Origin: Candidatus Heimdallarchaeota archaeon
Lineage (GTDB): Archaea; Asgardarchaeota; Wukongarchaeia; Wukongarchaeales; JBHIFL01
Direction of reading: 5' to 3'
Assembly (NCBI GenBank): GCA_046761065.1
Contig: JBHIFL010000095.1
Location: 1 to 13,737, forward strand
DNA: 13,737 nt
This document shows positions 5,839 to 12,110 of this stretch, piece after piece. The translations under genes were made by a program, and so were the position numbers. Each line of letters begins with the position of its first letter. Position 1 is the stretch's first letter. The notes beneath the pieces are model-generated. The model was not told where the DNA came from. It did not search any database and was given only the letters and a program-made list of their open reading frames with translations.

Positions 5839-6669
5839 TTAGATTAGATCTAACGCCCAGAGGACCAGGAAGTTTGCATACAGGGCACCTAAGGCTAATA
5901 CCAACACCTTTTCCAAGGCTAACATCTTTATTTTTTGTAAATTGAACACTTGAATTTGCAGACTCCAGACTTGGAGCCCTGTGACAATCACAAACGCGAT
6001 GGACGCAGGAATTCTGGTGATCCCAAACAAGCGAAATGAGAGATACCAAATGCTTAGGAAGAGGGTTTGTGGAAGGAAAGAGATCACCGTGATGAACCAG
6101 ACGCCACGGATGCCTTGACGTCTGGCAAAGAAGAAACGAGATCCGCCCTCAAAGAATAAAAACAAGAAAAGACAGCTTATTAAAACAGCTAGGAGCGAAA
6201 CCGGGACTGAATACCCCTTGAAAAGAATAATATAGCCTGCAACTACCGAATTCATTGTGGCTGAAAGCCAGCCTAATACGCTGATGATCAGCAGAGCTTC
6301 CAGGAACGAGTGTATTGGAGTATGAACAAAACCATTAATCAGCTTTTGAAGGGACAGAGCCGCAAAGAATCGGTTCTTTTGGATGCCTAGGCCCTGTTGC
6401 GATGGGGATGTCGAAACAACGTCTGTGCCAGTGTCGAGCAGTTTGCTTGCTTGCACTCCAAGAGGACTAAAGCGATAACGTTTATCCTTGTCTTGAACCA
6501 CCAATTCCTTCAGGATTCCGAGATGATGATAAAGGCTACCAGGAGTTATATCCAACTCTGCAATAAAATCCGAATACGTGACGAACTCCCGTTCTGCAAC
6601 CAACCGAAGGATTTTGCGACGAATAGGATGGTTTAGGGCCTCATAGAACTCCTGTTCTTTATCGTACAA
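5839..6669 (-). CDS. ArsR-like wHTH fused to a multi-pass membrane domain (Yip1-like)
   Basis: N-terminus FYEALNHPIRRKILRLV...TYSDF...ITPGSLYHHLGIL is a typical ArsR-type wHTH. About 5 C-terminal hydrophobic helices with an SFLP...WSL...L..EK pattern reminiscent of Yip1. TTG start, GGGAGTG RBS, TTTATAA box at 6701-6707. Confidence 0.85.
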   Translation of the reverse strand: MYDKEQEFYEALNHPIRRKILRLVAEREFVTYSDFIAELDITPGSLYHHLGILKELVVQDKDKRYRFSPLGVQASKLLDTGTDVVSTSPSQQGLGIQKNRFFAALSLQKLINGFVHTPIHSFLEALLIISVLGWLSATMNSVVAGYIILFKGYSVPVSLLAVLISCLFLFLFFEGGSRFFFARRQGIRGVWFITVISFLPQTLFLSIWYLSFRLFGITRIPASIAFVIVTGLQVWSLQIQVFNLQKIKMLALEKVLVLALGALYANFLVLWALDLI

Positions 6670-6721
6670 TGTTCGCAGTCACTCCCATCTATCTTTCGGA
6701 TTATAAACTCTTAATCTTATT

Positions 6722-6739
6722 GAGAAGTAAATCCTTCTC
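6722..6739. promoter_or_regulatory. Inverted repeat GAGAAG-N6-CTTCTC upstream of the TATA of the wHTH-membrane gene (candidate operator)
   Basis: Perfect 6-bp arms, 14 nt upstream of the minus-strand TTTATAA. Confidence 0.45.
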
Positions 6740-6889
6740 GAAATAAAAATTGCCTGATCCTAAATTGTGGGAAGGTATTATTCGGTTTTTGGATTGATCC
6801 CCTTCATTGGTGAATATATCGTTTTATATCTTATGAACGCTCTCCTCTGTATCAGATTTCAGGAAAAGAAAAATTCGTTACATCGATAG

Positions 6890-7726
6890 TTATCTGCGCC
6901 TAGAATAAACACCAATGACCAGAAGAACGGATGCTATTAGGACCATATAACTGTAATGGGTCGTTGTAATCCTACCAATCACCCCGGGAACTCCTCGGAA
7001 GCCAAGTGACGGATCGTGCTCTAAGTTATCAAAATGGGGGTATGCGAGAAATACTGATTTTTCCGCAATAGTTATGCCTACCGTATCCTCTTCGTTGTTA
7101 ACCATAGCGATGGTCGATGATTCGAAATAGGCATTCCCAGCCAATTCCACCCCGTTCTCTAGTTCGCGGGTGGCTGTATCCAGATCTTGTTCTGAAATGA
7201 CATCAAACTGAAGTGCTAGCATAGTTGTGGCATCGTGCCACGCCCAATTTGTAATTTGGATATCAAATTTAAGGCGCTCGGGCTGCGTTGGAGCATAGTG
7301 ATTGACTAAGCTAATGGCTGGGGAGCGTGCTTTGCTCGGGGTGGAGAACGTGAAGGTTTGAGCCGCGTCATTGATGGTGAAGCCCCAGTCCGCGCTTGGC
7401 AAGGAATATGATCCCCGCAGAATCGCTTCTTTGGGGCTATATTTTCCATCCCCGTCCTCATCGGCGAACTCAATGAGCTTCATGAACTTCACAAGATAGG
7501 TTCGATTGGTTGGGTTCGAGAATCGATAAAATGGTGGGCTTCCGCGTCCCACAAAACTAAAGGTATATCCATTTGAGCCCACAGTCGCCTTGTTTTCCTT
7601 GGCATCATACTCTACGCGCCCCTGCTCTTGAGGGTCCGAGCGGCCTGCAAGTGCTGGGTGGATAATGGACAGCATCAGGGTAATTGCAAGGATTACGAGC
7701 AGAATGGATCGTTTCGCCAAGTTCAC
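6890..7726 (-). CDS. Secreted C-terminally anchored surface protein, paralog A (EF-hand-like loop)
   Basis: Signal peptide; KLIEFADEDGDGKYSPKE; LVNHY..LKFDIQITNWAW; YPHF..L.HDPSLGF; VPG, TM helix, RRR tail. Clearly homologous to 11178-12110. Confidence 0.88.
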   Translation of the reverse strand: MNLAKRSILLVILAITLMLSIIHPALAGRSDPQEQGRVEYDAKENKATVGSNGYTFSFVGRGSPPFYRFSNPTNRTYLVKFMKLIEFADEDGDGKYSPKEAILRGSYSLPSADWGFTINDAAQTFTFSTPSKARSPAISLVNHYAPTQPERLKFDIQITNWAWHDATTMLALQFDVISEQDLDTATRELENGVELAGNAYFESSTIAMVNNEEDTVGITIAEKSVFLAYPHFDNLEHDPSLGFRGVPGVIGRITTTHYSYMVLIASVLLVIGVYSRRR

Positions 7727-7753
7727 TCACACAACTTACCTAATCTTTCCACA

Positions 7754-7806
7754 ATAAAAGATTTCAGTTTTATAGACCCAGAAGTCTAACCTCAAGCCGA
7801 ATTGAG
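7754..7806 (-). promoter_or_regulatory. Operator CTCAA-N6-TTGAG (7791-7806), degenerate second site and BRE/TATA for paralog A
   Basis: Minus strand: CTCAA ttcggc TTGAG gttagac TTCTG ggtcta TAAAA ctgaaatc TTTTAT. The TATA-like box is about 28 nt from the GTG start. Confidence 0.75.
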
Positions 7807-7945
7807 GTGTATTTCATATTTTCTGATTTACTTGGAATTCAATTAACTTGTGTGGTTTTAGTAATCTTTATGCCAGAAAATAACTACTTGTCCCAATGGG
7901 TGGATTAGGTTTCTTGTTGGGCATGTTCGCACCCTCTGTAAGCCA

Positions 7946-10487: not shown

Positions 10488-10491
10488 TGGG

Positions 10492-10701
10492 TCACACACG
10501 ATCGCCTTCTTCCCTCAAATGATCTACTGCAATTCCTTTTACCAAACCTCTTAGTAACTGAACCGATTCCTGAGGAATTAGATGAATTATGCCATTTTTT
10601 TCAATTACAACCAAGCTCTGACCTGGAGCAAGATTCATCTTTTTTCGTATCTCTTGAGGGATAACAATCTGGAATTTGCTAGACTCTTTCACAATTGACA
10701 T
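10492..10701 (-). CDS. vapB: AbrB/MazE/SpoVT-family antitoxin
   Basis: SSKFQIVIPQEIRKKMNLAPGQSL is the AbrB swapped-hairpin signature. The gene lies directly upstream of vapC. Confidence 0.9.
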   Translation of the reverse strand: MSIVKESSKFQIVIPQEIRKKMNLAPGQSLVVIEKNGIIHLIPQESVQLLRGLVKGIAVDHLREEGDRV

Positions 10702-10712
10702 CGATCATTTCT

Positions 10713-10949
10713 TTATAAAACAAATACAGCATCGATAATAAGTTTTCCTTGCGAGGCTCCATATTGAAGATGATCCCAATTAAATTTGCCAAGAATCTTC
10801 AGGGGCCATAAAGTTAACAACAACAGTATCAGAGACGCCCATATCGCCAATGAAGCTACCATGACTTTGAAGGCAATATATTTAGGAATAAATCCTCGGT
10901 TTAGCCCAGTTGAGGAATTTTTCACAATTTTGAACCTCCTGGGCATCAT
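10713..10949 (-). CDS. Possible small single-TM protein or gene fragment (78 aa)
   Basis: One hydrophobic stretch (VMVASLAIWASLILLLLTLW) and co-oriented with vapBC. No recognisable family. Confidence 0.3.
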   Translation of the reverse strand: MMPRRFKIVKNSSTGLNRGFIPKYIAFKVMVASLAIWASLILLLLTLWPLKILGKFNWDHLQYGASQGKLIIDAVFVL

Positions 10950-11099
10950 AAAAATCCTTTCAGGACTATTACAATTGAAAACAGCCCGTTTTCTAAAAGA
11001 AGATTCCCTTTTCTCCTTTTATCTTTATTTTGCTATTTTTTTTCCATTTTTGAGATCTTCTAGTAATCTCATTAAATACCATTGCTGCTGTCATAGCGA

Positions 11100-11156
11100 C
11101 TCAAATTTTCTTGAGGTCGGTTCTCTAGAACGCTAAAACTCAAAGAATATTAATAT
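11100..11156 (+). promoter_or_regulatory. Operator CTCAA-N6-TTGAG (11100-11115), degenerate second site and TATA for paralog B
   Basis: CTCAA attttc TTGAG gtcggtt CTCTA gaacgc TAAAA ctcaaagaata TTAATA, ending about 22 nt before GTG 11178. Confidence 0.75.
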
Positions 11157-11177
11157 GAAATTAGTCCCAGTGTACAG

Positions 11178-12110
11178 GTGAATTGTTTGAGAGATAACAG
11201 AAAACCATCAAAGATAGCTCTATTAGGGATAGCACTAGTCCTGATTATGGTTTCAGCAGTAATCGCCAGCGCAGTACCTAATGGATCAGTGATCCAAGGA
11301 AACGAAGAGGAGAATTTGGTCATAGTTGAAAGCACCTATAATAATATCGATTATGTCTTTAAGGTTACAGGGAAGGGTAATGTGCCCCACTATCATTTCT
11401 ACGAAAAGGCAGATGGAGAGCTTGAACCAGCCGATGTTAGCTTCCATGTCAAGTTTATCCAACTTATCGAATTCAACGACATCAATGATGATGGGTTCGA
11501 TGCTGGTGAGCAAGTTCCTGGAGGAGGCCATATGTTGGCCCTGCCCAGCGTAGATTGGAACTATAAGATCGATACGGCTGCGAAAATCTTCAACTTTACT
11601 ACTCCGGAAGGTAGCACGCCCTGGGTTCGGCTAGTGAATCACTATGATGTTGCGAACGAATTGAAATTCGACATCGAGCTCAGGGATTGGGATTGGTTAC
11701 GAGATGACAGTGAGTTAGCCCTCCGGTTCGATGTGACGGCAAATCCCGAGCCAGAAATTGATCCAGAAGATGTGGTAGCACTTGCAACATCAAAAGGTGT
11801 TCGCTTCGATTATGGTGATGACAAAACTGCGTTCTTTAATAGCTCTACAGAGGCTGAAATTACGACTGAAAGTGGTACGTCAACGCAAACCGTGAAAATC
11901 AAAGTGCGCATAATGGATGAGGATGATGACATTGGCGCCTCCGTCTACCTTAGTTATCCCCACTTTACAAAATTGAGCCACGATCCTACGGTCGGTTTCG
12001 GGGATCGTAGTGCGGTTAGCGAGTTTCCAATACTTCAGACCAGCCTTTTCATTGTGGGCATGGCCACGATTGGAATTCTAGGGATATTGGTTATCCGGCG
12101 ACGCTATTAA
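11178..12110 (+). CDS. Secreted C-terminally anchored surface protein, paralog B
   Basis: Signal peptide; QLIEFNDINDDG; LVNHY..LKFDIELRDWDW; YPHFTKLSHDPTVGF; VSEF, TM helix, RRRY (PEF-CTERM-like tail). Confidence 0.9.
   Translation: MNCLRDNRKPSKIALLGIALVLIMVSAVIASAVPNGSVIQGNEEENLVIVESTYNNIDYVFKVTGKGNVPHYHFYEKADGELEPADVSFHVKFIQLIEFNDINDDGFDAGEQVPGGGHMLALPSVDWNYKIDTAAKIFNFTTPEGSTPWVRLVNHYDVANELKFDIELRDWDWLRDDSELALRFDVTANPEPEIDPEDVVALATSKGVRFDYGDDKTAFFNSSTEAEITTESGTSTQTVKIKVRIMDEDDDIGASVYLSYPHFTKLSHDPTVGFGDRSAVSEFPILQTSLFIVGMATIGILGILVIRRRY

Follow-up and report, generated by a model that had tools for sequence, protein, structure and literature searches.

Organization of the locus

The window analyzed here is a 13,737-nt stretch of DNA that constitutes one whole contig (JBHIFL010000095.1) of the genome of a Candidatus Heimdallarchaeota archaeon (G000; 4.42 Mb, 234 contigs), in which all genome-wide scans were conducted. 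It encodes two paralogous surface proteins (A and B), a Rab-like small GTPase, a broken gene, and a protein (5839-6669) that joins a DNA-binding winged helix-turn-helix (wHTH) domain to a multi-pass membrane domain (Table 1). Four perfect copies of the palindrome CTCAA-N6-TTGAG are found in the promoters P1 to P4, and these palindromes, together with the factor that might read them, are the subject of this analysis. The initial annotation of the window had interpreted them as the operators of a hidden regulon driven by one of two membrane-tethered wHTH proteins encoded on the contig (205-1851 and 5839-6669). It named correctly the genes that the promoters face for A, the GTPase and B; the remaining promoter does face a broken gene, but this gene is not a paralog of A and B.

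Table 1. Positions of the genes, operators and promoter elements in the window (TM, transmembrane; BRE, transcription factor B (TFB) recognition element)
Feature	Position	Strand	Description
Proposed regulator	5839-6669	-	N-terminal ArsR-type wHTH (residues ~1-80), disordered linker, 5-TM Yip1-like membrane domain
Surface protein A	6890-7726	-	Signal peptide, beta-sandwich ectodomain, C-terminal TM helix, basic tail
P1 TATA-like box	7752-7759	-	TTTTATTG
P1 BRE-like word	7760-7767	-	CTGAAATC
P1 proximal site	7768-7783	-	Degenerate
P1 operator, distal	7791-7806	-	Perfect; faces the gene of surface protein A
Rab-like small GTPase	7946-8578	-	210 aa; basic N-terminal extension of ~30 aa; no C-terminal Cys
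P2 leader	8579-8864	-	From the P2 TATA-like box to the start of the GTPase
Leader element	8720-8772	-	Non-coding; 7-bp inverted repeat GTGATTA ... TAATCAC with a 39-nt spacer
P2 TATA-like box	8865-8871	-	TTAAATG
P2 BRE-like word	8872-8879	-	CTGAAATA
P2 proximal site	8880-8895	-	Left half is a perfect CTCAA
P2 operator, distal	8903-8918	-	Perfect; upstream of the leader and the GTPase gene
Class II promoter P3	9152-9182	+	Operator 9152-9167 (perfect), TAAAAAC 9169-9175, TTATAAG 9176-9182
Broken gene, small secreted/membrane protein	9227-9630	+	Compared with the intact ortholog L022:2-352, premature TAA (codon 5) and loss of 1 nt near 9350
Promoter P4	11100-11156	+	Operator 11100-11115 (perfect), proximal site 11123-11138, BRE-like CTCAAAGA 11139-11146, TATA-like ATATTAATAT 11147-11156
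Surface protein B	11178-12110	+	Paralog of A (~30-33% identity); same signal peptide, ectodomain, TM helix and basic tail

The four perfect palindromes largely exceed what is expected by chance: 200 dinucleotide-preserving shuffles of the window yielded a mean of 0.03 copies, and four copies were reached in none of the 200. All four are located in stretches devoid of open frames longer than 360 nt, in agreement with their initial description as intergenic. When two mismatches were tolerated, 13 sites were found in the window against ~8 expected, which corresponds to the background level. The regulon proposed initially does not extend to the genome, where the motif scan suggested as a check revealed eight perfect copies against ~5.1 expected from base composition, i.e., no enrichment. 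The four copies outside the window lie inside open frames of 498-4419 nt and have no flanks in common.

The promoters of the window fall into two classes. P1, P2 and P4 (class I) present the same layout to the base: a perfect 16-bp site (next base G), 7 nt, a degenerate 16-bp site, 8 nt, and an AT-rich TATA-like box. The layout initially described for three copies is thus confirmed, and it is exact, with 8 nt before the TATA-like box in each case. The second, proximal site retains part of the left half and ends with TAAAA, and the 8 nt that follow constitute a BRE-like word (Table 1). The center of the strong distal site is ~42 bp upstream of the TATA center, and the proximal site ends upstream of the BRE-like word. 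In P3 (class II), the perfect site stands 1 nt before TAAAAAC-TTATAAG and ~9 nt before the TATA. Its center is ~19.5 bp from the TATA center, this distance being ~18.5 bp for the degenerate proximal sites in the class I promoters, and the copy at 9152 therefore occupies the TATA-proximal slot, as had been noted. Because words of the AAACTTAAATA(G) type are the most common ones 10-80 nt upstream of long open reading frames (ORFs) in G000, the P3 element looks like a standard BRE/TATA. No operator overlaps a TATA-like box or sits downstream of one, these boxes being predicted from the sequence and from genome-wide promoter words.

A relaxed scan of G000 for perfect, one-mismatch and two-mismatch sites followed by TAAAA revealed no other promoter built like those of class I or class II, and a BLAST search of the promoter cassettes and the leader against the same genome returned no additional copy. 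These two negative results rule out a genome-wide regulon. The clustering of the palindromes is real yet local: it concerns four promoters on one contig and no dispersed regulon.

Conservation of the operators in related contigs

Conservation upstream of orthologs, which the initial annotation had named as a check, was assessed on metagenomic and metagenome-assembled contigs encoding homologs of A (49-79% identity) and of B (52-54% identity). The P1 palindrome is perfect in five orthologous contigs (L021:58, L022:3520, L023:2473, L024:2872 and L025:1892), one of which shows 58% protein identity, while the DNA preceding the site has diverged. Among the four promoters, P2 is the most conserved, with perfect palindromes at L022:2416, L023:1634 and L026:633 whose spacers are TCCTAG, TTCCAG and TTCCAT, respectively. 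The P4 orthologs (L044:522 and L045:519) present the sequence CTCAATTTTTCTAGAG with one mismatch and an unchanged layout. Class II sites, perfect or with one mismatch, were identified at L022:411, L022:2164, L023:1383, L026:381, L026:2728 and L025:1422; the six genes behind these sites all encode secreted or anchored proteins, and their sequences are unrelated.

Half-sites are therefore fixed while spacers vary, and this in front of non-homologous genes. Such a pattern is expected from a dimeric DNA-binding protein and not from inherited promoter DNA. In addition, A and B are only ~30% identical, which indicates that the shared sites do not result from a recent duplication. The retention of the palindromes in orthologous promoters with varying spacers supports the initial proposal that they lie upstream of BRE/TATA as transcription-factor sites, and their conservation suggests that they evolve as selected sites of this kind.

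Two additional observations concern the surroundings of the operators. The P2 and P3 operators are spaced 249-252 bp apart in four genomes (the window, L022, L023 and L026); the DNA between them is moderately conserved, and a frame of 62-68 codons is called there in some contigs with no clear coding signal. In L024, a fragment of a DDE transposase of an insertion sequence (2193-2649) stands directly upstream of the P1 operator, at the place occupied by the GTPase in the window. The neighborhood upstream of P1 is therefore fluid.

A candidate regulator with a winged-helix and a Yip1-like membrane domain

Two domains can be recognized in the product of 5839-6669. Its N-terminal part matches Pfam HTH_5 (28.5 bits; cut-off 22) and HTH_20 (29.7 bits; cut-off 27) over residues 14-56 and superposes on the ArsR-family proteins PagR, CadC and HlyU (template modeling (TM) score by target 0.65-0.76). 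The winged-helix fold of the ArsR/SmtB family is present and its metal-site Cys/His residues (alpha3N CXC or alpha5) are absent. As residues 1-80 contain no Cys, the protein is not a classical metal sensor. The linker (residues 82-98) is of low confidence in the AlphaFold2 (AF2) model. Hydropathy peaks are found between residues 114 and 273, and the model places long helices at residues 118-138, 155-181, 187-215, 222-248 and 252-275 with a predicted local distance difference test (pLDDT) of 84-94. In the AF2 model, residues 104-274 align to a bacterial Yip1-domain cluster of the structure atlas (TM score 0.71 by target). The Yip1 profile of Pfam (PF04893) matches four of the 20 aligned members of the family (best E-value 5.6e-6) and does not match the window's own protein at E <= 1; we call the domain Yip1-like only, because the window protein itself falls short of this profile. 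A Foldseek search of the whole protein against the PDB returned matches to the wHTH domain and none to the membrane part.

Genome context links this family to the surface proteins. Full-length homologs of the regulator were found directly beside genes of the A/B family at at least 11 loci in 10 genomes from several Asgard families (G003, G014, G034, G036, G026, G040, G022, G012 with two loci, G006 and G004), and the same adjacency was observed in many of 40 further loci that were fetched. The regulator family itself is present in 159 of 251 sampled Asgard genomes (E <= 1e-25). Upstream of the distant A/B homologs, we detected a perfect 16-bp palindrome, nTCrA-N6-TyGAn, followed by a second site, the word ..GAACTGAAA.. 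and a strong TATA. The distance from the end of the palindrome to the aligned protein start is 59-79 nt in these loci, and mostly 64-65 nt; it is 64 and 71 nt in the window.

The synteny and the residue-base covariation described below suggest that 5839-6669, not 205-1851, is most likely the best candidate regulator, which narrows the initial choice between the two membrane-tethered wHTH proteins to one. The 220-nt spacer between A and the regulator gene was considered as a further operator region and rejected: it contains no full operator but the half-site CTCAA (6720-6724) beside TTTATAAT, which is kept only in close relatives. As this spacer has a TATA-like box and the half-site only, the regulator gene may be transcribed from its own promoter.

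Other members of the family are found in different contexts. In the related 38-kb contig L021, the regulator is followed by a second module (2040-4851) composed of a 391-aa A-family protein and a 280-aa wHTH-Yip1-like paralog with a Thr-type recognition helix. The corresponding region of the window (~3500-5800) contains no long ORF and only a 63-nt similarity to this module, which the window genome appears to have lost or replaced. L051 (G086:C24) carries six perfect TCGA-N6-TCGA palindromes within 5.8 kb around the module, which suggests a larger local regulon there. Finally, a wHTH-Yip1-like subfamily with the helix STGTIYHHL (L039, L040, L055-L061 and L073; family f9 and others) is found without an adjacent A-family gene or a TCGA/TCAA palindrome.

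Covariation between the recognition helix and the operator

The recognition helix of the family follows the pattern G-x-L-Y-x-H-L. Its residue x, which is S45 in the product of 5839-6669, varies together with base 4 of the two half-sites. Proteins with Thr at this position are associated with TCGA-N6-TCGA at 19 loci spanning 11 genera and four families. The palindrome is TCAA-N6-TTGA when the residue is Ser or Arg (window clade), Lys (G012:C17 and G109) or Leu (G028). This rule has no exception among the loci where an A-family gene is adjacent and preceded by a perfect palindrome. Both types are found together in two cases: G012 possesses one module of each type and, within genus g16, G047 combines Thr with CCTCGA-N6-TCGAGG and G028 combines Leu with CCTCAA-N6-TTGAGG. 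G028, which belongs to a different family, thus has exactly the operator present in the window. The residue and the base have thus changed together three times independently, with both half-sites altered symmetrically each time. These symmetric co-changes constitute the strongest evidence that the 5839-6669 family reads these palindromes. A caveat of the covariation is that Pro-type proteins are associated with other palindromes. In the second module of L021, whose Thr-type helix had led us to predict a TCGA palindrome, only the left half CTCGA is present and the right half is degenerate, an outcome that neither supports nor refutes the rule.

Surface proteins and the broken gene

The AF2 model of protein A is a beta-sandwich (pLDDT 83), and among solved structures it is matched best by the GLMP luminal domain (6nyq_C; E-value 1e-6, TM score ~0.50, 10-13% identity); this likeness is a resemblance and homology is not established. 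We then predicted the complex of the regulator and A. The prediction obtained a score of 0.67, compared to 0.00 for the best of three controls, which are possibly not membrane proteins. It was built from alignments of our own, and TM helices are easily placed side by side. Of 80 solved complexes, 58 reach this mark, as do two mismatched pairs out of 110. At least 72% of the contacts are common to the runs, with a partner pLDDT of at least 75, and the predicted interface opposes residues 244-277 of A, its TM anchor, to residues 138-150 and 208-276 of the regulator, on its last helices. The model supports, as a testable idea and not as a finding, that the TM anchor of A may pack against the regulator.

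The product of the broken gene is small and has an N-terminal hydrophobic segment. Its promoter and operator (P3) are still perfect. The interruption was considered as a possible tRNA-type mRNA intron, which is ruled out by the nature of the lesions, a 1-nt deletion and a separate premature TAA with no insert. Between this gene and P4 lies a pair (10233-10701) encoding a PIN-domain (VapC-like) protein and a MazE/AbrB-type antitoxin; the PIN-domain protein has 88 aa against a profile of 120 positions and is possibly truncated.

The Rab-like GTPase and its leader

The GTPase presents a G domain related to Rab proteins, with a strong match to Pfam Ras (5.8e-46), the motifs GxxxxGKT, DxxGQ, NKxD and SAK in its translation, and Rab1a, the Thorarchaeota Rab 7ezb, Rab43 and Ypt31 as solved relatives (E-value ~1e-30). 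It ends with ...MRAAVRL and has no Cys in its tail, hence no prenylation motif. The distance from the P2 TATA-like box to its start is 287 nt, and L022 likewise has a leader of 287 nt. L022 has kept the inverted-repeat element of the leader (Table 1), and the distant L026, in which no GTPase follows, retains it in part. The element is deleted in L023, where most of the leader is gone and the GTPase frame follows close behind P2. A known RNA was sought in the leader and rejected: no Rfam family and no tRNA was identified, and folding gave no signal (single-sequence z ~0; the alignment fold consists of the invariant 7-bp repeat only, with little covariation). The 35-codon frame of the window leader was also discarded as coding, as it is not conserved in L026.

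The initial annotation had placed the GTPase under common control with the surface genes. The promoter arrangement behind this proposal is found in the window and its closest relatives, L022 and L023, but the link does not hold beyond them: L026 retains P2 and the leader element with the GTPase absent downstream. G000 encodes 34 Ras-family genes. Among ~55 distant loci, L040 (genus g25) was the only one in which a GTPase gene was seen next to the regulator family: its wHTH-Yip1-like gene is divergent from a Ras-like GTPase gene. The search for GTPases did not include the 40 loci fetched later, nor L056, which also belongs to genus g25. Outside the window clade, this adjacency does not exceed the level expected by chance. 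A Yip1-like domain paired with a Rab-like GTPase is a suggestive combination. It could be imagined that the GTPase binds the Yip1-like domain of the very factor controlling its promoter and that its nucleotide state gates the expression of surface genes, although we regard this as unlikely. If true, it would represent an archaeal Yip1-Rab partnership in signaling, and a possible forerunner of the eukaryotic Yip1-Rab relationship.

Mode of action and alternative explanations

We consider it probable that the palindromes are the operators of the membrane-embedded 5839-6669 factor, which would activate the surface genes and, in the window clade, the GTPase, with A as its partner or sensor. A dimer of the regulator would occupy each 16-bp site. 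At the promoters of A, the GTPase leader and B, the strong distal site would aid the filling of the weak proximal site beside BRE/TATA, and a single strong site would sit in the proximal slot of the class II promoter. From these positions, the factor would help recruit TATA-binding protein (TBP) and TFB and thereby activate its targets, namely secreted or anchored proteins and, in the window clade, the Rab-like GTPase. Sitting against the membrane domain of the regulator via its TM anchor, A would complete a kinase-free loop from the surface to the genes. Activation is the most likely outcome because the sites lie upstream of the core promoter, and it is site position only that favors it. Archaeal sites located upstream of the core promoter usually activate, as those of Ptr2 and TrmBL1/Tgr. 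The ArnR boxes of the flaB promoter also lie upstream and are activating (PMC6396743). Relative to the boxes predicted from sequence and promoter words, the positions observed here fit those of an upstream activating sequence, with sites upstream of BRE/TATA and none over the TATA.

Several observations weigh against this interpretation. The B promoter of L046 is degenerate, and the A promoter of L026 itself has kept the layout with a site that carries two mismatches. Seven Thr-type loci with an adjacent A-family gene present a palindrome with one mismatch or none at all. Contigs of the window clade differ in x, which is either Ser or Arg, and yet have one operator in common; x is therefore not the sole determinant of specificity. 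The regulator is assigned from gene adjacency and from independent co-changes that are few (three), and the composition of the controls and the ease with which TM helices are paired reduce the weight of the predicted contact with A. Finally, the class II geometry, with its site 1 nt from the BRE-like word, fits repression equally well.

This last point raises the possibility that the same regulator and sites function in repression, or in a dual manner with activation of class I and repression of class II promoters. The solved ArsR-family structures that match the wHTH domain (PagR, CadC and CzrA) are those of repressors, and a dimer bound at a class II site, which is separated by 1 nt from the BRE-like TAAAAAC and by ~9 nt from the TATA, could block TFB. 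The class I sites argue in the other direction: the distal site and the proximal site, which stops short of the BRE-like word, occupy the usual place of an activator, and no site is found over a TATA or downstream of one. Repression is therefore possible but, in our view, somewhat unlikely. It is considerably less plausible that another factor binds the palindromes, either the tandem-wHTH protein 205-1851 or a regulator encoded elsewhere, and that 5839-6669 is merely a co-regulated target. The receptor-like 205-1851 is encoded on the same contig and has two wHTH domains (HTH_24, 4.3e-9), and adjacency alone does not prove cognate binding. Yet the covariation involves the 5839-6669 family, and no homolog of 205-1851 accompanies the module in distant loci except for a weak partial match in L040 (L021-L026 were not searched). 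Moreover, the divergent promoter of 205-1851 has a palindrome of its own, GGAGAACTGTTCTCC, abutting BRE/TATA. This second palindrome is found at 2122-2136, in the divergent region between 205-1851 and the gene of a repeat surface protein (2194-3405), and as a near copy at 4282-4296, abutting AAACCTTATAAG / AAACCTTAAATG promoter boxes, and the two probably form a separate operator set.

Two explanations remain. P1, P2 and P4 share ~55 nt of layout and two of them precede the paralogs A and B, as would be expected if duplication or gene conversion had spread promoter DNA with no dedicated factor involved. This is very improbable given that A and B have diverged to ~30% identity, that the spacers of the four sites are unrelated while their half-sites are perfect, and that the GTPase and the class II genes are not paralogs of A; in addition, the change from TCGA to TCAA/TTGA affected both half-sites together in three lineages, as a dimeric reader predicts. 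Each palindrome could also form a hairpin in RNA, with a 5-bp stem and a 6-nt loop, and act as a terminator or processing site. However, these stems contain only two G-C pairs, no T-run follows them, and the palindromes stand upstream of BRE/TATA-like boxes, with a spacing to the coding start that is fixed throughout the phylum, which makes this explanation extremely improbable.

Relation to known systems

The proposed system presents similarities with several known ones, and the 5839-6669 family appears distinct from each of them. ArnR and ArnR1 of Sulfolobus acidocaldarius consist of an N-terminal HTH, a HAMP-like and a sensing domain, and two C-terminal TM helices (PMC6396743). The architecture of the window protein was compared to this description: like ArnR, which activates surface-structure genes via two boxes in front of their promoter (PMC6396743), it would be a one-component regulator that acts from the membrane of an archaeon, with homology evident only at the level of the HTH class. 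In contrast to ArnR, its 5-TM Yip1-like part comes without a HAMP or other cytoplasmic domain in Pfam, which sets it apart from the ArnR family, and its targets are GLMP-like anchored proteins instead of type-IV pili. The transmembrane transcription regulators (TTRs), such as ToxR, TcpP and CadC, likewise combine a DNA-binding domain and at least one TM region in a single protein acting from the membrane (PMC10269533), and both elements are predicted in 5839-6669. In the survey of Demey et al. (2023), single-pass proteins make up 56% of the TTRs, the named examples are bacterial, and the words "Asgard" and "ArsR" are absent from the main text (PMC10269533). The window protein differs from these named examples by being multi-pass and having an ArsR-type wHTH.

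In the pairs ToxR/ToxS, TcpP/TcpH and VtrA/VtrC, the regulator gene stands beside that of a second membrane protein, which binds the regulator and probably modulates it, an arrangement that the predicted contact between A and the regulator would fit. The contacts of these pairs are made between periplasmic domains, whereas the contact is predicted within the membrane here, and the partner is GLMP-like and would itself be the product of a target gene. A type-I beta-sandwich protein also serves as the accessory subunit of a lysosomal multi-pass protein in GLMP-MFSD1 (6nyq, 8r8q); A is likewise of type I with a beta-sandwich, but its multi-pass partner would be a Yip1-like transcription factor and not a transporter of the major facilitator superfamily. 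Finally, the Yip1-like 5-TM domain, encoded two genes away from an operator-preceded Rab-like GTPase, recalls the eukaryotic Yip1/YIPF and Rab/Ypt proteins. Unlike eukaryotic Rabs, this GTPase lacks the prenylation Cys, and the adjacency of Yip1-like and GTPase genes is limited to the window clade and one other genus. The Yip1 fold is also found in bacteria, as indicated by the structure-atlas cluster, and it has been reported in all three domains of life (10.64898/2026.10.28.762692). Yip1 is listed among the "eukaryotic signature" families of Asgard archaea with no mention of a DNA-binding fusion, and the module was not described in the literature that we searched on Asgard small GTPases and membrane transcription factors and on Yip1 in Asgard archaea or with an archaeal HTH.

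The family studied here is distinct in that it combines an ArsR-type wHTH with a multi-pass Yip1-like domain, a GLMP-like type-I neighbor and a defined two-site operator design. What is new in our analysis is the residue-base covariation, the operator distance fixed across the phylum, the fold evidence for the Yip1-like and GLMP-like domains, the predicted contact between A and the regulator, and the limits placed on the link with the GTPase. Asgard archaea are mostly uncultured, and we found no regulator-operator-target circuit of theirs in the literature searched. With a predicted factor, its 16-bp site, a likely specificity residue (S45), the matching base 4 and the targets, the model is directly testable. 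The module may be a main way by which Asgard cells couple their envelope to gene expression without kinases, and if a Yip1-domain protein controls a Rab-like GTPase in the window clade, this would bear on the roles that Asgard GTPases and Yip1 had before eukaryotic membrane traffic.

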